Shown in pieces: positions 1,252-45,500 of a DNA stretch of 64,000 nt (position 1 is its first letter; every line of letters begins with the position of its first letter). The stretch spans positions 620,001 through 684,000 of the forward strand of contig RSEE01000016.1 in assembly GCA_003971905.1 (NCBI GenBank), in the 5' to 3' direction. The translations under genes were made by a program, and so were the position numbers. The DNA comes from Moniliella sp. 'wahieum' (taxonomy: Eukaryota). The notes below the pieces were generated by a model. The model saw only the letters and a list, made by a program, of their open reading frames with translations, had not been told where the DNA came from and did not search any database.

Positions 1252-4200
1252 ATGTCGGGCAACGTCAAAGTCGTTGCGCGCTTCCGCCCTCCCAACACGC
1301 TCGAGTTGCGCGAGGGCGGCGACATTGTCGTCGACTTTAGCGCAGTCAATCCCACTGATCCTGGCGAACACACGATCAAGCTCCTTGGCTCCACCAACTC
1401 GGACGCGCTCAATGGCTTCACCTTTGACCGCATCTTCCCCATGGGCACCCCCAGCGCGACGTTTTCGAGTTTGGGATTCGCGACACGGTAGACGGTATGC
1501 CACCCCTCTTCCTTTTCTCGTGGCGCTTGCATGTACCACCCTGCTGACTCTATTCGTCAGATGTGGTCAACGGCTACAATGGCACCATCTTTGCCTATGG
1601 CCAAACGGGCTCGGGTAAGACGTTTACCATGATGGGCTCGGACATTGACGATGAAAACACCAAGGGTATTATCCCGCGCATTACCGAGCAAATCTTTGAG
1701 TCGATCATGGTCTCGCCACCAAATCTGGAATACTTTGTCAAGGTGAGCTACATGGAAATCTACATGGAAAAGATCCGCGACCTGCTGCAACCACAGAACG
1801 ACAATCTTCAAATCCACGAGGACAAGGCCCGCGGTGTCTATGTCAAGGGATTGACCGACGTTTATGTTGGCTCAACGGGTGAAGTATACGAGATTATGCG
1901 GCAGGGAAGCTCGGCCCGGGTCGTGTCCTACACCAACATGAACGCCGAGTCCTCCCGCTCCCATTCGATTTTCGTCATCAGCATTCAGCAGCGCACACCG
2001 AGACGGGCAGCTCCAAGACCGGCAATTTGTATCTCGTCGACCTGGCTGGTAGCGAAAAGGTGGGCAAGACGGGCGCCAGTGGCCAGACGCTGGAAGAAGC
2101 CAAGAAGATCAACAAGAGTTTAAGTGCGCTCGGCATGGTGATCAATGCCTTGACCGACGGCAAATCGGGGCACATCCCTTACCGTGATTCCAAGCTGACC
2201 CGCATCCTGCAAGAGTCCCTGGGTGGTAACTCACGCACGACTCTGATTGTCAACGCTTCCCCCTGCTCCTTCAACCAAGAGGAGACCTTGTCGACGCTTC
2301 GGTTTGGTGTGCGTGCCAAGAACATCAAGAACAAGGCGCGCGTCAATGCAGAAATGTCGCCTGCCGAGTTGCGGCAGGCCCTCAAGAAGACCAAGGCCGA
2401 GGCGGACCGGTACAAGGCCTATATTGCGGCTCTCGAGGCCGAGATCAAGATCTGGCGTGCCGGGGGCAAGGTCGCCGAGGCCGACCGGGCCGATGCGACC
2501 AAGGTGGGTACCGCCGCGCCTGGTCACCAGGCCACGGGAAGCACCGTCTCCACGGGCACCAGCAAATTGTCTGCACCGAGCAGCAAAGACTCGCCGCGTC
2601 CCACCAGCCCGGCAGTGGAAGGGCTCAAAGAGCTTACTTCCCGCCCGATACGCCGACGGTCGTTGGTCTCGACAAGGACGAGCGCGACGAATTCTTGCGT
2701 CGGGAGAACGAGCTGGCGGACCAGGTGACGGAAAAGGAGGCGGCGCTCAAGCTTGCTCAAAACCATCTCGCCGAGGTCCAATCCGAGCTTGCCTTCCTCC
2801 GTGAACAGGAAGAGACGTTCAACAAGGAAAACAAGGCGTTGACGACAGAGATGAACGAGGTCAAGCTCGAACTGGAGCGGATCCGGTACGACAGCAAGGA
2901 CTCGACGATCATGATGGACATGCTCAAGGAGCAAAATGCCGAGTTGACCGTCGAAGTGGAGGAGCTAAAGAAGAACTTGGCTGCCGAAACGGCGCAAAAG
3001 ACGGCCAAGGATGCAGCCCAAGAAGAGCGCAAGGAACGCAAAAAGCAAGAAAAGATGGCCAAGATGTTGGCTGACTTTAGCTCGGGCATCCTTACCGAGC
3101 GCGAGGAGCAGATTCGCGCCACCCTGCTCAAGCTTGAAACGACCGCTGGCGCGCTGAGCAAGGAGGACATGGGCATGGTCCGGGAGCAGCTGCTCGAGTC
3201 GCAGACGCTGGTGCGGGAGCAGCAGGAACTGTTGACGCAAGCGCAAGAAGAGAACGATTTGCTGCTCCAACGGCGTGAGGAGACCGAGGTGCGCCTGATG
3301 GAGCTCGAGACGGAATACGAAGAGTTGATTCAGCGCCAAGTGCGTGAGGCGCAAGCTACACACCAAGGCGGCGATGTGGAGGCTTTGGTGGAAGATCTCA
3401 AATCCAAGCTCGAGGTGCAGTATGCCAACAAGCGCCAAGCGCAAGCCGATGCGCTTACCGACTTGCAACACCAAGTCGACGTTAAAGCCAAGGAGGTTGC
3501 CTCTTTGCGTGCGGCCAACGAAGAGCTGAAGAATAACAACGAGGAGCTGAAGCGTGCGTTTGCCATCACAGCGGCCGGTGTCGAGGGCGGCAAGAACCTC
3601 GCCGAGTCGGCCCGCGAAATGGAGCGGGTGCGCAAGACGATGGCCAACCAACTGGCCGAGTTTGACCTGATGAAGAAGAACTTGATGCGCGATCTGCAAA
3701 ACCGATGCGAAAAGGTCGTGGAACTGGAACTGTCACTGGATGAGTCCAAGGAACAATACAACAATGTTTTGCGTTCCAGCAATGCCCGCACCCAGCAAAA
3801 GAAGATGGCGTTCCTCGAGCGCCAACTGGAGCAGCTGGTCGATGCCCAACAACAGTTGGTTGCCCAAAATGCGGCGCTCAAGACCGAGGTGTCGGTGGCC
3901 GAACGCAAGTTGGTCGCACGGCAAGAACACATTCGTGCGCTTGAAGCGTCGCTCACCGAGTCGCAACATAAGCTGGCCGCGCAGAATCGGAGGTACGAGC
4001 AACAGATGGAGGCGGTGCGGACCAAGCTGGCGCATGCGCGCGAAGCACGCGCTTTGGCCCCGGCTAATGCCTACGGACGGATCGCCAAGCCCCTGCGCGG
4101 CGGTGGCGGCGCTCCTCTGCCGGTTCAACAACCTGGCGCGCCCGTCGCCGTACCGCGCGGCGCGGCAATCACCCCGGCCCAAGCGCAAAGCCACCAACGT

Positions 4201-12138: not shown

Positions 12139-12886
12139 ATGTCCGAGGTCCACCCGTCGCAGCAAACCATCAAGTGTGCGTCTCTGCCTCCCTCCCAGCG
12201 GCCGCCGTCTGCTACTCGGCACGCCGCCCTGTGCCCCCTCCCCCCCCCCCCCCGCCTGTGTCCTTCCCGTCCGCTGAACGCTCCGGCTAACCCCTGCTGC
12301 CTTCCTTCTCCGCTGCTGCGCAGGCGTCGTTGTGGGAGATGGTGCTGTGGGAAAGACGTGCTTGCTCATCTCTTATACCACCAACTCCTTCCCCAGCGAC
12401 TACATCCCCACCATCTTTGAGAACTACTCAGCTCAAGTCTTGGTCGATGGCAGACCCGTCCTCCTTGGCCTGTGGGACACGGCGGGCCAGGAAGACTACG
12501 ACCGGCTGCGCCCGCCTCAGTTACCCGCAGACCGACGTGTTCTTGATCTGCTTCAGTCTTGTGTCGCCGCCGTCGTTTGAGAATGTGAAGAGCAAGTGGT
12601 GGCCCGAGATCACGCACCACGCACCCCAAGTTCCCGCCCTGCTGGTTGGGACCAAACTGGACTTGCGCGACGACCGAGACACGCTGGCCAAACTGCGCGA
12701 GCGCCGGATGGGACCCATCTTGTATGCCCAGGGCTCTCAGTTGGCCCGAGAGATCGGGGCGGTCAAGTACATGGAGTGCTCGGCGCTGACCCAAAAGGCC
12801 TAAAGGGCGTGTTTGATGAGGCGTTGCGCGCGGTCATCACCCCGCCCGCGCAAGCAACGAAAGAAGACAATTGCCAGATCTTGTAA
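12139..12886 (+). CDS. rac1: Rac-family small GTPase; intron 12176-12323
   Basis: [75 protein letters not shown] and CAAX box CQIL. W56 indicates Rac rather than Cdc42. Indels near 12515 and 12798. Confidence 0.9.
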
Positions 12887-18059: not shown

Positions 18060-19204
18060 TTATGCCTCGGCCTGAGCTGGGCCGCCTGCTTGGCCAGAGC
18101 CCTAGCAGCGATTTCCTTTTTGATCGCTTCCGTCGCCTGCTGCTGAGCTTCCTTTTCGGCCTGGACAGCCGCCCTGTACTCCTCTACTTGACGAGCGCGC
18201 GGGCTGGGTCAAAGCTGCCAGGAATGTCCAGCTGGAAGCCCGGGGCACCAGCGAAAGTAAGTGTGACGTTCTTGAACTTGTCAGCAAACTTGCGCAGCGC
18301 CGTAGCGCGCACGGCAGGGTTGTTATCAAACGCCGTCACCAACGCCTGGCCATTGACCACGGTGGTCGCGATTTTCGAAGCGCCCACCTGCTGCTCGATG
18401 GCGAGGAGAACGGCCAAAATGTTGGTCCGCATCTCGTCAAACGTGTAGTGAGCCGGCCCGGGGTGACCGGCACATTGCCCACTCGGTCCGTGCGCCAGTC
18501 CATCGCGCCCTGGGCCGCCTCGATGGCCGGTTTGAGCTGCTCCGGGTCTTCGAGCGCGGTGCCACGACGCAAGTTGGGCATGAGACCCTTGGGACCGAGG
18601 AAGCGAGCGAGCTGCTTTTGATGGCAGGCAAGGCGTGCGTGTCGGACAACACTTTGGTGTAGCCCGACACTTCGCCCGACAGCACCCGACGGAACAGGTC
18701 GGGGGTGACAATCGTGATGAGCCCCGGCGGCATGGCATCGCGCAGCTTGATCGCCTCCTTTCCGACGGGGAAATCGGTGTGGGCAAGAATCAGGAACTTC
18801 TCCGTGGTCTGGCGTGGGTCCTTGGGCAAGGTCATCTGGCCACGCAGCACATTGAGCTCGTGCGGGGAAGAAGACTTGGTACCGACATCCAACTTGTACG
18901 ACAGGGCGACGACACGCCATACGCCCACAATGCACGCCACGCCACCTCCAGCGGCACACGGTTGTCCGCCTTGGGCATGTTGGGCGTGCCCTGCTTGGCG
19001 AGCTTGCGCTGCTTGCGACTGATCCGGCTCTGGGCCCGCGATTTGGCCACCACGGCCGACGTGCTCAGCGCACGGACGGCGAGCGCGCCGGCAAGCGCAG
19101 GCATTGGACGGACAGCGGCAGCTACAGGTACGGGGCAGCGAACACGCATCGCCACACGGGCACGACGAGCGGGCCATGCTGGCCAGCGAGGGGAGCGCCG
19201 GCAT
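18060..19204 (-). CDS. MRPL1: Mitochondrial ribosomal protein uL1m
   Basis: Arg/Ala-rich presequence (MPALPSLASMAR...VRALSTSAV), LRGQMTLPKDPR, and RFLGPKGLMPNLRRGT (Ribosomal_L1 signature), followed by WRTDRVGNV. Multiple frameshifts. Confidence 0.8.
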
Positions 19205-19785
19205 GGTCAGCGGGGATGGGCCGGGCGACAGGGACAGGTGGTGTGGCAGCCAACGGCGGGGGGCGCCGTCGAGCGCATGCGAAGAAATGGCCAAGGCGCT
19301 CACGTAAGCGAAGCTCTCCGGCGGCGCGCTGCTCACGCGTCCCACCACGCACGACGCGTGATGCCGGAAGGACGCTGGATGTGCAATGTTCAAACGCAAA
19401 CACCACGGGGGGACATTTCAAAAGTGCGAGCCTTGCTGTGCGCCTCGGAACGCATGCCTTAGGATCCACAGGAGGGAGGGAGGTAAGGTTCCCTGGAGTG
19501 TACTGTAGCCATCCCGCTTGAAGATGGTACGATTGCACTCTTCACTCCCAAAGGATTACTCGTCCTGCCCCCGATCGGCGGGGACTGCCACCCACTGTGC
19601 TGTTTCTTATAAAGAAGGGGGAAAATTGAGGGGTCAATTCCTGGCATGTTTTCAGGAAAGAGGGGTTGGGAAAGGATGATGCGATCCGAGAAACATTCAT
19701 ATACTGGCATCTGACATCCGAGCAAGCAGGGGAGATACACTGAAGTTACACAGTGTCAAAGATGATGGGAGGGCAAGAACACTGC

Positions 19786-22700
19786 CTAGGTGTAAATCTT
19801 AAAAGTGAGCTTGTTGACCTCGGGACCCTCGGTCTCCTGGAACAAGTCCAGCTTCTCGAGGAAGTGGGTGGGGAAGCTGATGAGCGAGCCGCGGATGCCG
19901 GACAAGCGCTGCTTGATGTAGCTAGACGGCATTGTCGCATCCGCCACATGGCCCCGCTTCTGCGGCGGCTGGGGATAGAAGGTGTAGTACTAGTAGTAGA
20001 AACGCACAGGAAATTAAAGAGAAGAAAAAAGTTAGCACGTATGGGTTCACAAAAAGACAGATTCCAACTCACATCCTTCCAATCCAGCACTGAATCGTCC
20101 GGAACGGGGTGGAAAAGTTCGGCATAGATGGCGGTATTTTCCTGCACCTGGGCATTCCAAGTGGCGAACAACTCGTCCGATAGCGGATCAGCCACCCGTC
20201 GCTCCCATTCGTCCTCTTGTTCGTTCCCGTCTCACGCGAGGGGTCGGGGTTGGGGTGCGGAGCGGGCCGCATGGCATCCGTCGGATAGCTGGCGGCAGTG
20301 TCGGCATTGCATTCTTGCGGAGCAATCCAGCCGAGGTGCTGACGCCAGAGGAAGCGACGGAACGAGGCGGCAAACTTGGATGCCTCGTACGGCTCCCCAT
20401 CCATCGTCGATGCAAACATGTCAGAATCCTCAATCACCACCGCCACTTCCGAATCCCGATCGCCACACATGGACCGGTCGTTGATGTTTGCGGAACCGAT
20501 AATGACCCGACGGTCGTCAACGATCATCAGCTTGGAGTGGATGTAGGTCTCCTCGGTGACGTAGTTGTCCTTCTCGTCTTCCTCCCCGGCCCAGTACTCG
20601 TCGACGGTGCTGGGCTGGCCTTCGAGAATGTTGCTGGCGATCGAAGCGCGTGTTTCTGTCGGGAACGAGCGCGCTGAACTGGGACAGGACGCGGTCTGCG
20701 TCCGCAGCCGTGGGAGGGAGTGGGATCGGCTTGAGCTCCGGCGGCTTGTCTTCCTCATGGCTCTTTGCCTCGGCCTTGGCAGCAATGGCGCCCAACAACG
20801 ACCGCGGTTCTTCCGATCCCTCTTCAGCGGTGCGCTCGGGCTGCTGTGGGGACTGGTGTTCATCCTCTAGGCTCTTCTCGCGGGCCTTGGCAGCAATGGC
20901 TGCCAAGATCGACCGACGCTCTTCTGAACGTTTCGCCTTGACGTCCTCGCCGCCCCATCGGACAGCAGCTTGAACCTTTCCAACAAGGACGATTCGGGTG
21001 CAATGCGCTGCCCACGCCGACCGTTCATCTCATCCACCTCCTGCACCGAACGGATGGTGACCTCAGGATGGTCCTTGTACCACGACGCCGAGTCTTGCGG
21101 TAAATCGCCCAGACACTGTCTCGCATACGATGCCTCCATTTCCCACGTACGACACGCCACTTTCCTGCTCGGCACGTGCAATGCTGGGGCCATCGTAGAG
21201 AATTCGGTCCATAGCACGCAGGTTGTAGAAGGAGATATAGTCCTCGGGGTTGACACCGGCCTGCTGCAGCAGCCCAAAGATGGACGTGGGCCACGGCAGA
21301 TGCTACGGTACTGGTACGCCATGATCGCCAGCAGTCCGTCCGCCTTGTCCAAGTCGCCGGCAAAGCAAGGAATGCAAGGAATGCAGATCATCACGGACTT
21401 GGTTCCCTCCCTGGCAGCACGGAGGATGCGGTGAACCAATGCTTGGCCCAGCTGGTTTTCAATTTCTTTCCTCGGGCGAGGTGGCAGTGATGAAGAATTG
21501 GTTTTCAATGTAAATGCAATGCTCGGCTTCCTCGATCAATTTGCAGTAGGCCGTCTGGATGGAGCATTCCTTTAGAATGCCCGAGCTCCAATCCGCCGAC
21601 GAACGCACCATTTGGATCTTGCACGTTCCATTCGAAGGCCAAGGCGCATGGGGCGTCTGATACGGCACCCGGCTCGGCGAAAAGGGGTGCAAAAACTTTT
21701 CGCCCACCTCCTCCCACTGGGGTGAGCGGATGGGCTCGCACCTCGGGGTACGCCGCCTCTACATCCTCCACCCGCAACGCGCCGTGGGGCAAGGCGAGCT
21801 GGGTATACTTGCTGTCGTCCTTGTACTCCGGGGTGGTGGTGAGGACAAAGTTCCACCGCTCCACCACGTGCCGCGCCATATCCAGCGCGACCGGGCCAAC
21901 GATGGTGACGTGCACATCGTGCCACGGCATGCGCGGCACGGTCAAGCGGCTCTGGTTGTTGCTCAAATAGTCGGTCACGTTTTGGAAATCTTCAATGCGC
22001 GAATTGTTGTAGTCTTGGCCGGGGAAGAGCGTGCGTTGCATGTCGGACGGATGCACGTCGGCCAACGGGTGCGAGTGCGTGTCCCACCGTCCAAAACACA
22101 GATCCAACCCGCCACACAGACCGCATGGTTGTCCACCAACACTACTTTCTGTCCATGATACGCACAGCACGATGGGAAATGGTAAGTCTCATCCGTCGCA
22201 CACCACTTTTCCTCTTCCTCTTCCTCTTCTCTTTTTCTCCTTTCTCCGTTCTTCCCCACAGCAACCACGGAAGCCAAGGTACATACCTCGTGGTGCGACC
22301 AAAAGAGCGTAGTGGAAGCAATGTGGTCCGGGTGGCGCAGGGCCTGCATGTTGGGGTGGAGGCTGTTAAGATAGTCGACAGTGTGGCGGGAACTGTTGGA
22401 GGCCGTCTGGGTAACTTCCTCGTAGACAATGATGCGGATCTTGACGCCGGCCTCGGCCTTGCGCTGCAAAAGCCGGTCCAGACGGTACTCGGGATAGAGT
22501 GCCGGCGGGCGGCGCAGATATACTATACCAAAGAAATAAGGAGAAGAAGGGTCAGTTGCGTTCCATATCCTCGCAAAAGAAAAGGCGCATTAGGGGAGAG
22601 AGAGAGATGAACGAAAACTGCATACGCTCGGGGGAAAGCCACCAGTCAAAGATGACAATCACGTCCTGGGCATTCTCTAGGATTTCGGACACGGCCCAAA

Positions 22701-22940
22701 AGTAGTCGTGGCCGTCGGAGTACCATTTGGCCTGGTTGTGGTGGCGCTCGGGCGCAAAGGACTGGAAGCGATGGGAAAGTTTGATGGCCTGGAGGCGTGC
22801 GTCGGCAGCCTGCTCCTTGCTGCTGTCGTGGCGGCTGTCGGGATTGAGCAGTGCGGTCGCTCCGCTGGTCAGGCGCTCGACGTTGGCGGCGATGGGCTGG
22901 GGTCGAGCTGGTGGGCGATGGTGTTGAACAGCTGGGACAT
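19786..22940 (-). CDS. Phospholipase D (two HKD motifs, no evident PX/PH N-terminus); at least 3 introns
   Basis: AKWYSDGHDYFWAVSEILENA, IFDWWLSPE, FWSHHE|KVVLVD (HxKxxxxD), GGLDLCFGRWDT, PRMPWHDVH, IYIENQFFIT and YIHSKLMIVDDRRVIIGSANINDRSM. Confidence 0.93.
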
Positions 22941-25892: not shown

Positions 25893-28330
25893 ATGTCATC
25901 CACTGTGTTTTCTCTTGCGGGCCAAAACCTTAAGCTCGACTCGGCGGAGGACATTCGTCCATACGCCGATCAACTGGCTGCGCTCCCTTCTGTCACCGAA
26001 ATCCACCTCGGCGGCAACACCCTCGGCGTGGCTGCTGCTGAGGCCCTGGCGACCGTGATTGGCACAAAAAGACGCTCAAGGTATGCTATCCCTCTTTTTT
26101 TCCTTGGCGGGAAAGATGGAGCGAGCTGCTGACTTCTTTCCCTTCGCTCTTTGGCTAGGTTGCCGACTTTGCCGACATTTTTACTGGGCGCCTCATTTCA
26201 GAAATCCCAGATGCGCTTCGGGCGCTGTGTAGTGCTTTCGCCCACCTCATCCCTCCGGTGGTGCGTTGGAAGAGGTCGACCTGTCGGACAATGCGTTTGG
26301 TGGGCGCAGCGTTGAGCCTCTCGTTCCACTCCTCGAGCTTTCGCCTTACATCAAGGTGCTAAAACTGGGCAACAATGGGCTTGGCCCTGAGGGCGGTGCG
26401 GTCGTGGCTGATGCGTTGACGCGAGGTGCGGAGGAGGCGAGGTTGAAGGGGTCTCCATCTCAGTTGCGAGTGATCGTCTGCGGGCGGAACCGACTCGAGG
26501 ATGGCAGTTCGTCCCAACTGGGCCAAAGCACTGGCGAGCCATGGCGCACTGGAGGAGGTGCGGCTGTACCAGAATGGGATTCGGATGAAGGGCATCGAAA
26601 CGATTGTCTTGGATGGCTTGGCGAAGAACCTCAACCTGCGTATCATTGATCTCCAGGACAACACCGCCACTCTTCGGGGCGCCCGGGCTGTGGCCAAGGC
26701 GCTTCCCAACTGGCCGCACCTCACTGAACTTCAACTGAGTGAGACGCTACTTCGCCCGCGCGGGGGACGAATGGTGATCGAATCTCTGTCCAAGGGGTAC
26801 AAGGCGATGACCAAGATTGGCCTGGCATTTTGTGACTTGGGTCCGGACAGCATTGCCGGTCTGTCAGACGTGGTGCGGGTCATGCCGGCGCTGGAACATG
26901 TGGACGTGAACGGCAACTTTGCTGAGGAGGATGGGGCTGAGCTGGAAGCACTCCGTGATGCGCTGGAGGCCATTGGGCGAGCGGATGCGTTGGCCGAGAC
27001 GGACGAGATGGACCCAGAAGGTCTGGAGGAACTCTCCGAAGATGAGGACATTAGCGATCGCGAAAGTGAAGACGAAGCCGAGGCCCAAGAGCCTCCTCCT
27101 GCCCCCGTTGATGAGGACGACGAGCTGGCAAAGCAGCTTGGTGCTGTTGGTTTGAACGATGTCAAGCCGTCTGCTGTCTTCAGCTTGGCTGGGCAGGGGC
27201 TCAGGCTCGATTCTGCTGCTGACATGGAGCCGCATCTCAAGTTGTTACGTTCCCAGCAAGGCGTGGAGGAGATCATCCTGTCGGGAAACACGATTGGGGT
27301 AGGTGCCGCTGAGGCACTGGCAGAAGTTATCAAAACCTTGCCGACGCTCAAGAAAGTCAACTTGGCCGACATTTTCACTGGCCGTCTGATTTCTGAGATT
27401 CCTGATGCTCTCCGGGCTCTGTGCTTGGCCCTCACGAGCATTGTCCCACCCCATGGGAGCTTGGAGGAAGTGGACTTGTCGGACAACGCGTTTGGCGGTA
27501 GATCGGTGGAGCCATTGGTGCCTCTTTTGGAAGTGGCGCATTCGCTGCGTGTGCTCAAGCTGGGCAACAATGGCCTCGGTCCCGAGGGAGGCGCTGTCGT
27601 GGCCAATGCACTGGCCCGTGGGGCCCAGCAGGCTCGCAAAGATGGACAAACGTCCAAGTTGAAGGTCCTCATTTGCGGCAGGAACCGTTTGGAGAATGGT
27701 AGTGCTGCAGCCTGGGCTACTGCTCTGTCAGCTCATGGTGAGCTGGAAGAGGTACGGCTGTACCAGAACGGAATCCGTATGGAGGGGATCGAGACCATTG
27801 TCTCCGCCGGTCTGGCTGTCAACAAGACCCTCAAGGTGGTGGATCTGCAGGACAACACGGCGACGCTGCGGGGAGCCAAGGCGGTGGCCAAGGCCTTGCA
27901 ACAGTGGCCTGAGCTGGAGGAGGAACTGCAATTGAGTGAGACGCTCTTGCGTCCCAAGGGTGCGGCTTTGGTTGTTGAGGCCCTCCGCACTGGCGGACAC
28001 AAGAACTTGCGTCGGCTTGGCCTTGCGTTCTGTGACGTGCCTGCTTCGACATTGGCCACTCTTTCGCCTTTGATCAAGGAGCACAAATGGGCCCTCGAGC
28101 ACATTGATGTGAATGGGAACTTTGCCGAGGAAGAGGGCCCGGAGATCGAGTCTTTGCGAGAAGCTCTTGCATCTATTGGGGGGGAACATGCTTTGGCAGA
28201 CACGGACGAAATGGACCCTGAGGGAGAAGACGACCTGTCGAGCGACGAAGATGTCTCCGACCACGAGGATGACACAGAACCGGCACCTGCTCCTGAGGTG
28301 AGCAAGGCGGTAACTTCGGCGTCCAAGTAA
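25893..28330 (+). CDS. RNA1: Ran GTPase-activating protein with two tandem LRR RanGAP domains; intron 26081-26158 (possible extra terminal exon to about 28529)
   Basis: Each of two copies has VFSLAGQ.L.LDSA, GNT.GV.AAEALA, ADIFTGRLISEIP, VDLSDNAFG, LGNNGLGPEGG, CGRNRLE.G, QNGIR, DLQDNT and an acidic tail. The junction is read through in a single 609-aa ORF (26501-28330). Confidence 0.93.
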
Positions 28331-28578: not shown

Positions 28579-29538
28579 TCAGGCAAACACGACCGTCTTT
28601 GCGCCGTTGGGCAGGACGCGGTGCTCAGCCATCCAGCGTACGGCGCGGCTGAGCACGCGGGCTTCAATGTCCGCACCAATCTGTACCAGATCGGAGGGAG
28701 AATCCGAGTGAGCCACACGTTCCACGTCCTGCTCGATAATTGGCCCCTCATCCAGATCGGCAGTGACGAGATGGGCAGTAGCACCAATGATCTTGACCCC
28801 ACGGTCGTATGCCTGATGGTAAGGCTTGGCGCCCTTGAAGGAGGGAAGGAAGGAGTGATGAATGTTGATAATCTGACCCGAGAGGGCCGTACAAAGCTTA
28901 TCGCTCAAAATTTGCATGTAGCGTGCCAGCACGACGAGCTCAACGTCATATTTCTTGACCAGCGCCATAAGTTCTCTTCTTGCCACTCCTTCGTTTTCCC
29001 CGAAGCGACATCAATCGGGAGGTGGTAAAAGGGAATTCCATGCCGCTCCGCCAGCGACTGGTACGTCGCATGGTTCGAGACAATCAGTGGGATATCAATA
29101 GGCAGCGTGCCCGAACTGTGGCGGAAAAGAAGGTCATTAAGGCAGTGACCAATCTTGCTGACCATGATGAGTGTACGGGGGCGAGCATCAGCGCGGTGAA
29201 GGTGGAAGTTGACGTCGTAGGGACTGGCCAAGAAACGGGCAAAGTCGCCTCGGAGCTCGGCCATGCGGGCTTCGCGCATCGTCTCAGCCTCTGCCGGGTC
29301 AGAGGGAGTAGCACCGCGAGGAAGCAGCCCCGTGGCATGAACGCGCATGAAGAACCGATTTGTCGTGGGATCGCCAAACTGATCCGAGTTGATAATTAAA
29401 GCCACGCTGGGCCAAAAAGCCTGTGACAGCATAAACTATGCCGCTCTGGTCTGGGCAAGCGAGCGTCAAGATAATGTTGTTCACCTCAGGGTTCTGCTTG
29501 CGCTTTGGGTTGGCGGTCGTCTTGGACGGCTTGGGCAG
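28579..29538 (-). CDS. purU: Formyltetrahydrofolate deformylase (ACT + formyltransferase domains); start codon unresolved
   Basis: [105 protein letters not shown] and KTVVF. No introns seen. Confidence 0.93.
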
Positions 29539-42500: not shown

Positions 42501-45500
42501 GTGCAGGCCCTGATTGAGGACGTAGACCAACGCATACAGTCCATGGGTTTGGCATACGCCCAAGACCTGATCCAGGTCCAAACAGGTGACCTGCACGTGC
42601 CACACCAGCCGCGCCGCCTCGTCGTACTCCCCCCGGGCGGTATGGAAGGTAAGCAACCGTTGAACCACTTCGGGCGGCAAGGTGGCCATGCGACTCGCCA
42701 GGATAAACCGCTCCATTTGCGCCACAAACAAGTCTTCGATCCCGGCGTTGGTGTAGCGTTCGTACAGGTCCGACCAGAGGAACTGCGTGTCGCCCAGGTC
42801 GAGGCAAGCCTCAGCGCACGTACGTGCCAACAACTCGAAAAATTCCGTCCGGTCCACCCCGCGGCCATCGAGACTGACATGGGTCGAGTCACGGAAACGT
42901 TCTTCGCTGAACGCGTAGGCTGCAGATGCCTGCATCAGCTCGAGCAGGCGCCCACCGACGCGCTCATGCCGTTCCTCCGTGGTGCGGGGGAGCCCGTAAC
43001 TAAAGAACGGATGGGCGCCTAGGTAGTACGCCGTGGCCAAGCGGATCGCAGAGATAAAGTTGCCCTGGGACACCAGCGCCAGCAAGTGGTCCGCCCATGA
43101 CAGCAGCGTGCCTACAGCGACTTGGCTAGCCGTCTTTGGTTTGGGGGGGGGGAAGGTCAGCGATAAGGACTGGGCACAAACAAGGGGGGGGGGGGGGGGG
43201 GGGGGGGGTGAAACGTACCAAAACAAACACCCTGTGTCCCGCAATTGCCAAGCTCATCCCGATCGACGAAGCGGGTCGATGGAGGGTAAGGGTGGGTCCC
43301 GCAGTACCGGGACGGGGGCAGCCAAGGATGGGCGAGTACTTCAGAGAGCGGGTGCGGGCGAGGGGCAGTGTGGCGCAACGCATGCACTTGCGTATCAAAC
43401 AAGGAAAATGTAGAAGCGCCCACGATGAGCAAGAGCTCGGGGTCGAGCCAACGGAGTGCCAGCGGGGCTTCGGGAAGAGACACGAGGTCGTGCTCAATCA
43501 GTTCCACATGTTCACCTTGAGCGCTGCCGGAGGAATCCCCCACGGGCCGTCGTGCGGCAGCAACCGACAGTTCGAGTAGAGTTAGCTCAGTGCCCAGCGT
43601 ACACGCAAGTGTCGGCCGCTTGCCTTCGGCCGCCGGGCGCCATGCCACGGCCGCAGCCAAGACAGCTGGACTGGTGGGAGACGACCCGGAAGGCGGTACG
43701 TGGGGGGCTTTGTGTCGCCACCACGTTCGGGCGACTGGCTTGATCGCACAGAGCACCACTTTGTCCGGGGCAGCGATGGCAATGAAGAGGTGGCCATCGC
43801 TCAGTGAGAAGCAGTGCCGAGCGGGAGAGCGGCCATGTCGAGGATGGTGGAATGAGATTCGGAAGAAGACGAGGCAGGGTAGCGACCAAAGATGCGGAGT
43901 GTGTCGTTAGAACTGACCCCCAGAATCTTTCCCAGCGAATGGTAGAATGCCAGTCCAGTGTGGTCCGCCGAGACGATGGCAGTGTGCCGCGCTCCCAGGA
44001 AGGACAGACGCACAATCCGCGAGCCCGCCAGATGGCCTTCCCTTCGACCGCTGCGAACTGCACTGAGCAGAACGGGGGCAACGTGCCGCGCAGGATCGAG
44101 GTTTGGCCAGGTCCCAGAGAACAATGTGTCCATTGGAATGGCCCACTCCTACAAAGGTGCCATCGTGAGAAAGGAGAGCGCTGTCACTTCTCCTGGGGCG
44201 TCGGCCGCTTGTTTGCCCGCCAAGAGAAGGTGGGCATGAAGATGCTGCGCATACGTAAAGACAAATGTCTCGCCCGACGTGAGACCCACCGCGATGAGCC
44301 CATGCGAGGTCAATGGCCGTCGGCGTTGCCCGAGCTCGTGCGGTGGGTCGAGACCTTGGTGGGCAGTGTCGAGACGAGCTTCGTATTCTTGCTCTGCCAT
44401 CACCTCCGTCTCACGTGCGCTGCGCCGCGGGGAGGGGGAGGGAAGACGGCCCGGTTGACTTGACGCATGGTGGACCAGTGAAATAGGTCTTGTTGTCGAG
44501 CGCGAGCAGATGTGCACCGGCACCTTGGGTCAGGGGCACGCCCTTGCCATCAAATGCACGACTGTCAAACTCTTGGGAAACTGTCCTTGGCTCTTGTCGG
44601 CATCCAAGGGCAAGGAGGTGTGCACAGCGTTAGCCGTAGCAAACGAAAGGATACTGGTTACGCTCCCCCTTCGGCTCAAGGGCGCCTCTGGAGCACCCCA
44701 CGGGTAAAACCGGTTGGAAGGAAGAGCAGAGGTGCCAAGGGTAGAAACGCTCCCGCTGCGAGGGCGGGAGGAAGAAACGTTCTCCTCGGTCCGAACACTG
44801 GTGCTACTGGGTGCACGAGAACGGGTGCGGGAGCCAGAACGAGAACGGGAACGGGAACGGGAGCGGGAGCGGGAACGAGTACGATCTGCTGAGACCGATG
44901 GGGCCGAGAGAGAAGCGGCACTGCTATTGGCACGGGTGCTCGTATCCGACACGAGCGGAGCCGCTCGCAAACGCATTAAGGCCGGAAATTCTTTGGGTCG
45001 TTGCCGATCGGCGCGAATCTTGTCGGAGCGGACGTGGGAATGGGCAAACTTTGGTCCAGCCCGGTCACCCACCCTGGGGCTGGGGCCGGAGCTGGGGCTG
45101 GGGCCGGATCTGGGTCCGGGACCGATGTGGATGAGGGCGATGGAGATGGTGTGCGGATACTGCGTCCCGAATTGGCTTGTGGAGACAGAGGCATAGCCTG
45201 CTCCCCAGAGGGTTTGGGGGGAGGGTTGGATTTGGGACATGTGGTGGTGAAGGAGGGCGGGGGGACGTCTGCTCCAATGTCGCGGAGAAGCGACCTTACC
45301 CCTGAGGAGGCCGAGAGATGGGGAGGCAGAAGAGGGGCCGCGGCAGCCTCTGCTACAGGCGGGGACCGCGGAGGCGCCGGAAGGTCGGGCGTAAGTTGGA
45401 CAGGAGACAGGCTCTTGGGCGGCAACTGCGGCGACGGCGATGTAGCATGCGAAGTGACGGATACTGGGGCAGCACTGGGGCCGGGCTGGACGGCAGATCT

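Follow-up and report, generated by a model that had tools for sequence, protein, structure and literature searches.

Does the RanGAP locus of a smut-related fungus encode one catalytic module or two? We addressed this question in a 64,000-nucleotide stretch of contig RSEE01000016.1 from Moniliella sp. 'wahieum' (hereafter the window, to which all positions refer). The essential switch of the Ran gradient on the cytoplasmic side is RanGAP, the Ran GTPase-activating protein, conventionally presented as having one module, and a sequence-only reading of the window had proposed that two full copies are fused here in a single polypeptide. We establish the architecture, age, conservation and motif retention of this double RanGAP. 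The locus is probably one nuclear gene, from a smut-related basidiomycete (Ustilaginomycotina), with two exons, one 5' intron and two complete, working RanGAP modules in tandem. Judged from sequence, the double RanGAP of this clade is genuine, ancient and conserved; it represents a variant within a well-known family, and other eukaryotes have counterparts of it.

Two Rna1/RanGAP units lie head to tail on the plus strand, at 25893-27154 and 27155-28327, where the sequence-only reading had placed them, and each consists of a complete leucine-rich repeat (LRR) crescent with its own acidic tail. A global MAFFT alignment of the DNA (25893-27155 against 27156-28330) finds 707 of 1157 aligned nucleotides identical (61%). 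The junction between the copies, ...DDELAKQLGAVGL-NDVKPS-AVFSLAGQG..., is open in one frame, as had been claimed: a stop-free frame from 26474 to 28330 (618 amino acids, 1857 nt) crosses it. The parts of the gene are the following.

25893 to 26080, plus strand: exon 1, with the start ATG and the N-terminal LRRs of copy 1 (MSSTVFSLAGQN...); includes frame break 1.
26081 to 26158, plus strand: intron of 78 nt, GTATGC...CTGAC...TAG, with GT..AG ends and CTGAC as a branch-like site.
26159 to 28330, plus strand: exon 2, with the remainder of copy 1, the linker, copy 2 and a TAA stop (28328-28330).
25893 to 26995, plus strand: LRR module of copy 1, with ADIFTGRL at 26171-26194, NNGLGPEGG at 26371-26397, GRNRLED at 26482-26502 and QDNTAT at 26654-26671.
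26996 to 27154, plus strand: acidic tail of copy 1, which is the inter-module linker; 53 aa, of which 23 are D/E, with the C-terminal motif DDELAKQLGAVGL, resembling a nuclear export signal (NES), at 27116-27154.
27155 to 28198, plus strand: LRR module of copy 2, intron-less, with VFSLAGQG at 27176-27199, ADIFTGRL at 27365-27388, GRNRLEN at 27677-27697 and QDNTAT at 27848-27865.
28199 to 28327, plus strand: acidic tail of copy 2, with 16 D/E in 42 aa counted from 28202 and a terminal EVSKAVTSASK.

Both units belong to the RanGAP family. Pfam LRR_6 and LRR_1 match them, and homology extends over the full length of the Rna1p LRR crescent (about 11 RI-type LRRs). Copy 2 matches Schizosaccharomyces pombe Rna1p (1k5d_C) with an E value of 4.6e-69 over chain positions 2-369 of 386. 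Copy 1 matches in colinear pieces, at Rna1p positions 4-57 (exon 1 residues 6-57) and 96-175, and its C-terminal half matches copy-2 positions 186-379; the piece at 26159-26254 is placed solely through alignment to copy 2. The IFTGR arginine, R77 of copy 2, aligns with R74 of S. pombe Rna1p, which we take to be functionally important, and an identical ADIFTGRLISEIP is present in copy 1. The GRNR, NNGLG and QDNT motifs are likewise kept in both copies, with GRNRLED in the first and GRNRLEN in the second, as had been noted. Among 102 single-module basidiomycete RanGAPs, 82 alignment columns show at least 95% invariance (hereafter near-invariant positions); of these, copy 1 retains 73 and copy 2 retains 75, about 90% each, bearing out the earlier statement that both halves keep the hallmarks of the family. 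Five changes at near-invariant positions are common to both copies and therefore predate the copy split.

How old is the doubling, and is either half decaying? Over 382 aligned codons the copies share 64.7% protein identity, with a proportion of synonymous differences (pS) of 0.767 and a proportion of nonsynonymous differences (pN) of 0.259; pS is saturated, and we therefore give no numerical dN/dS between the copies. Within the 20-codon stretch ADIFTGRLISEIPDALRALC (26171-26230 against 27365-27424), 12 codons differ through 12 nucleotide changes that leave every amino acid unaltered, exactly the count first reported. By our own arithmetic, twelve silent changes out of twelve would occur with a probability of about 0.25^12, or about 6e-8, under neutrality, synonymous sites making up about 25% of the total (S = 289/1146). 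Because saturated pS stands against low pN, and because the 20-codon stretch varies only silently, the data indicate that the duplication is old and that both halves are under purifying selection, in agreement with the sequence-only reading. An assembly artefact, in which a segment was falsely duplicated or echoed, might be suspected in an assembly rich in indel errors. The copies, however, are 61% identical in DNA, the intron is present in copy 1 only, and the same two diverged copies occur in four other taxa; we rejected an echo on these grounds, as had been done from the letters, and regard an artefact of this kind as exceedingly improbable.

With copy 2 as query we found four close relatives at 67-83% identity: P0003 (731 aa, 79%), P0034 (679 aa, 83%, with three cluster members), P0035 (591 aa, 74%) and P0004 (952 aa, 67%). 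In each of them a single open reading frame (ORF) contains copy 1, the linker and copy 2. In a maximum-likelihood tree of 50 module sequences, the window clade has support of 100/100 and divides into a clade of copy 1 modules (99/93) and one of copy 2 modules (99/91) with five taxa apiece, which points to a single duplication before the five taxa diverged. The terminal branches of the two window copies measure 0.066 (copy 1) and 0.072 (copy 2). The window clade lies within Ustilaginomycotina on a long stem of 0.66, weakly beside Tilletiaria (81/86). At sites that are otherwise invariant, both copies share changes (NLSDC to QLSET, Q to A and E to D). The long stem together with these shared changes is consistent with either fast evolution before the split or a period of gene conversion between the copies. 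A search for metagenome loci of the double protein gave 205 pattern matches, none of them confirmed.

Are the two modules made as one chain? The junction has no stop in any of the five taxa, and none of them shows a Met conserved where copy 2 begins; in the window the first Met of copy 2 lies 24 residues in, past the first beta-strand. The locus would yield two proteins if copy 2 arose from an internal promoter or initiation site, or if the chain were cleaved in the acidic linker, which is probably disordered and could be accessible to proteases. Against this, besides the open junction, the linker is conserved as protein (83% identical to P0003, 44 of 53 residues), and the tandem RanGAP of Amoebidium, discussed below, derives from transcript data; we consider two products from this locus highly unlikely. 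The record of the tandem RanGAP of Ascaris, also discussed below, presumably derives from cDNA. The motif DDELAKQLGAVGL at the end of the linker has the spacing L-x3-L-x2-V-x-L, is conserved in P0003 and P0034, and has a related D-E-L-A-x-x-L after the acidic tail of other Ustilaginomycotina RanGAPs; we infer that it may act as an NES. The tail of copy 1 alone retains it, EVSKAVTSASK at the end of copy 2 being a degenerate counterpart.

A further question is whether copy 1 is intact. As assembled, it is not one reading frame, since it contains the 78-nt intron and three one-base frame breaks. The sequence-only reading overlooked both; its proposal of one polypeptide holds for the junction, which is open here and in four of four relatives, and does not hold for copy 1 as it stands in the assembly. 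From the ATG at 25893 the frame passes from 0 to 2 at 26065-26069, to 1 at 26255-26257 and back to 2 at 26512-26515, where it stays to the stop. The assembled coding sequence (CDS) measures 2438 - 78 = 2360 nt and so is not divisible by 3; correcting two one-base deletions and one one-base insertion gives 2361 nt and 786 aa. The breaks are as follows.

26065 to 26071, plus strand: frame break 1, at an A5 run (26065-26069); one extra base gives ...GTKKTLK/VADF... (the slash marks the intron site), colinear with relatives.
26255 to 26257, plus strand: frame break 2, from frame 2 to 1; one base short relative to P0003 (HLIPP-GGALEEV in the window, HLISSGGALEEV in P0003).
26512 to 26515, plus strand: frame break 3, from frame 1 to 2; one base too many in TCCC, where relatives are in frame (EDGSSAQWARAL, EDGSSVSWAKAL).

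The intron position is ancestral for Ustilaginomycotina RanGAP, and copy 2 lacks an intron there. ORF read-throughs at the intron site (...LK/V..., ...Q/VADFADIF) are seen in P0003, P0005, P0016, P0017, P0071 and P0304. A search with exon 1 gave one match, P0304, which is the exon-1 ORF of a more distant RanGAP (54% identity); it supports the intron position and not the N-termini of the close relatives. The first frame break is read as a 1-nt deletion error. Its site lies outside the ORFs of the close relatives, so that the comparison rests on single-copy relatives, which read ...KKTLKVADFADIFTGRL there (KKTLKVADF). P0003 is in frame through the second and third sites and P0034 through the third. 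All three breaks adjoin or fall within short homopolymer runs.

The single-polypeptide reading holds only if the three one-base breaks are assembly errors, as is likely. We consider it very probable that all three are such errors, because intron-less breaks of the same kind split other conserved genes of the window, because the pieces of copy 1 show no decay (84-85% identical to P0003 between the breaks, 26/31 and 72/85, compared with 83% for uninterrupted copy 1 and 77-79% for copy 2), and because relatives are in frame at two of the three sites. The other split genes are these.

1548 to 2725, plus strand: kinesin motor; Pfam profile positions 69-220 and 216-327 fall in different frames on overlapping DNA (18 residues in one frame, 21 in the next). 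The break, at about 1994-2015, leaves no room for an intron and is probably a one-base assembly error.
12278 to 12886, plus strand: Ras-family (Rho/Rac-type) GTPase with a C-terminal CQIL, whose reading passes through three frames in turn; Pfam Ras profile positions 3-68 and 65-147 overlap at the first break (about 12510-12520), and a second lies near 12790-12800, upstream of CQIL, seen by eye only.
28582 to 29435, minus strand: purU-like formyltransferase; an intron-less frame change appears on reading two frames, and Pfam places the downstream half only (profile 64-181).
43160 to 44148, minus strand: Vps8-like gene with an intron-less frame change; its two beta-propeller Pfam matches lie below the curated cut-off.

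A codon-score scan of the window added 17 further abutting same-strand frame switches, an approximate count given that the scan is crude and its boundaries fuzzy. The assembly carries many one-base indels, for which annotators must correct. In the same scan, frame switches abut every 150-450 nt at 18068-19348 and 20052-22905, both on the minus strand; the second of these genes has a PLD active-site motif, and nowhere else in the window are signs of indel errors so dense as in these two. No Ran gene was found in the 64-kb window, and the Rho/Rac-type gene at 12278-12886 was rejected as a candidate for Ran.

Several observations weigh against an intact, two-module protein. In this assembly the start codon at 25893 and the stop do not share a frame, and the breaks are somewhat clustered, with three in 620 nt of copy 1 and zero in the next 1800 nt. 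P0034 and its three cluster members start at ...MSDNAFGG, just past the equivalent of break 2, and P0034 may therefore carry a real break at that site. P0004 is the only relative to show a complete N-terminus of copy 1, the ORF calls of the other three being incomplete at that end. In P0004 copy 2 is itself altered at otherwise invariant sites (G to Q beside the arginine, R to W in NGIRM), which hints that one half can drift. Finally, there may be a second, ordinary RanGAP gene elsewhere in the genome. The clustering and the P0034 start would suit a copy 1 that is truly frameshifted in this strain, with the upstream module recently inactivated and either a truncated product or copy 2 alone left functional. 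We think this improbable, since conserved genes across the window show many one-base breaks without introns, the broken region matches P0003 as closely as the rest does, the branch of copy 1 does not exceed that of copy 2 in length, copy 1 retains 73 of the 82 near-invariant positions, and short homopolymer runs lie at or next to the breaks. In one version of it, the protein would start at the ATG at 26501, which break 3 puts in frame.

A different question is whether two intact modules would do the same work. The halves could be sub-specialised, such that each chain has one working GAP module while the other serves for Ran-GTP binding, scaffolding or localisation. In support of this, some copy-specific changes occur in every taxon (all copy 1s have D for N in GRNRLE(N/D), all copy 2s S for G in LSGNT), the L-x3-L-x2-V-x-L motif is kept in the tail of copy 1 only, and copy 2 of P0004 lacks 10 of the 82 near-invariant residues, including the R of NGIRM. 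Nevertheless, each half retains every hallmark motif and about 90% of the near-invariant positions, the branch lengths of the two copies are equal, and GRNRLED is also present in the single-copy RanGAPs of Meira and Acaromyces. Sub-specialisation is unlikely, although the drift of copy 2 in P0004 makes its partial form a serious rival. Between the modules of P0004, at residues of about 400-470, there is an extra partial C-terminal cap repeat and an acidic stretch (...ELSFNGNLAREDGSEPEALRVALDTL...), and the locus seems prone to repeated in-frame duplication.

We propose that a double RanGAP with two working modules arose as follows. One in-frame tandem duplication of nearly the entire CDS, from about codon 4 to the C-terminus and with both breakpoints inside it, would have occurred in an ancestor shared by at least five taxa, and the internal copy of the intron would have been lost afterwards; such a pattern, in which an internal intron disappears and the 5'-most one stays, is in keeping with intron-poor fungi. 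The resulting protein of about 786 aa would consist, in order, of LRR crescent 1, acidic tail 1 with the NES-like motif, LRR crescent 2 and acidic tail 2. Both modules are predicted to be working GAP domains, each of which would dock one Ran-GTP (with RanBP1) and stimulate hydrolysis as S. pombe Rna1p does, while the acidic linker of about 50 residues would act as a flexible tether, giving two catalytic sites per chain. That this organism translates the gene as one chain, that each half is active and that bivalency brings a benefit are inferences.

How does this protein compare with known RanGAPs? It shares with Rna1p of S. pombe and Rna1 of Saccharomyces cerevisiae (PDB 1YRG, 1K5D) the RI-type LRR crescent, the IFTGR arginine, GRNRLEN, NNGLG, QDNT and the acidic C-terminal tail; Rna1p, however, has one module per chain, whereas the window gene has two modules and two tails in one ORF. 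The nearest named relatives, at 50-57% identity, are single-module RanGAPs of Ustilaginomycotina (Tilletiaria 787, Jaminaea 756, Meira 722, Acaromyces 811 and Ustilago tritici 514 aa). They have the same intron position and a D-E-L-A-x-x-L-type motif after the acidic tail, yet they combine one LRR module with a long low-complexity tail, while the window clade has a second module instead. In most long-tailed single-module RanGAPs of Ustilaginomycotina (P0009, P0011-P0016, P0041, P0048 and P0071) the disordered tail ends in ...F(R/K)AAxGA(I/V)(R/K)ELL; the window clade has neither the long tail nor this motif.

The sequence-only reading had also drawn a parallel with Segregation Distorter of Drosophila, which proved to be weak. 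Both cases involve a tandem duplication at a RanGAP locus, but Sd-RanGAP is a partial duplication encoding a separate, C-terminally truncated protein that is enzymatically active and mislocalised to the nucleus (PMC2668186). In contrast, both units of the window are complete and fused in frame, for which reason an Sd-like partial duplicate was rejected, and nothing points to meiotic drive.

The architecture had been presented as one without known precedent, and a search for other two-domain RanGAPs had been suggested. Four close relatives do share the fusion; the implied uniqueness did not survive, since tandem forms already stand in public databases for nematodes, ichthyosporeans, a chytrid, an ostracod and Tilletia. 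Among nematodes, Ascaris suum F1KT89, 'Ran GTPase-activating protein 2' (949 aa), has two or more modules, Haemonchus and Pristionchus have tandem modules, Steinernema has three and Mesorhabditis has four partial ones. The protein of Caenorhabditis angaria is a 953-aa cluster member whose modules were checked on the 837-aa cluster representative; Caenorhabditis sp. 36 has one full module and a fragmented second, Ancylostoma also has a fragmented second module, and Parascaris univalens (972 aa) is a candidate tandem RanGAP listed as a cluster member only. Outside nematodes, tandem RanGAPs are found in the ostracod Darwinula, the ichthyosporeans Amoebidium (793 aa, from a transcriptome) and Ichthyophonus (728 aa), the chytrid Chytriomyces hyalinus (743 aa) and the fungus P0005 (NCBI, 929 aa), and Tilletia walkeri and T. 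caries have repeated in-frame modules in proteins of 938-1914 aa. Some of these may be merged gene models. RAN-2 is named as the RanGAP in PMC6762213. We found no paper describing tandem RanGAP modules in the open-access literature.

On the tree, these other tandem RanGAPs appear as separate events of duplication or homogenisation, although gene conversion could mimic independent origins. The nematode proteins resemble the window protein in having at least two full-length LRR modules in tandem in one predicted chain, and differ in origin, their modules being sister to each other within Ascaris and within Steinernema; the animal tandem RanGAPs differ further in having, according to their database names, a RanGAP1 C-terminal domain. 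The copies in Tilletia and the chytrid are near-identical, and hence young or homogenised, whereas the window duplication is old and common to five taxa. It is possible, and we suggest it tentatively, that the multi-module RanGAP represents an unrecognised convergent solution, with the protein of the window clade a bivalent GAP, both of its modules long kept active, that engages two Ran-GTP at once, a property that would be selected and not neutral. Under this tentative suggestion, multiple modules may have been fixed independently in the smut-related clade, Tilletia, a Tilletiaria-like fungus, a chytrid, ichthyosporeans, nematodes and an ostracod. If so, a bivalent GAP could act, for example, on export complexes or at pores.

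Altogether, the family and the chemistry are ordinary, the architecture is already present in databases, and the functional consequence set out above is a proposal. An ancient doubled RanGAP with both halves under purifying selection is a natural experiment on the importance of valency or local concentration of GAP sites in nuclear transport. At least five further lineages show the doubling as well, among them Caenorhabditis-type nematodes with a genetically tractable RanGAP, and because it occurs in these tractable animals the question of valency is open to experiment.

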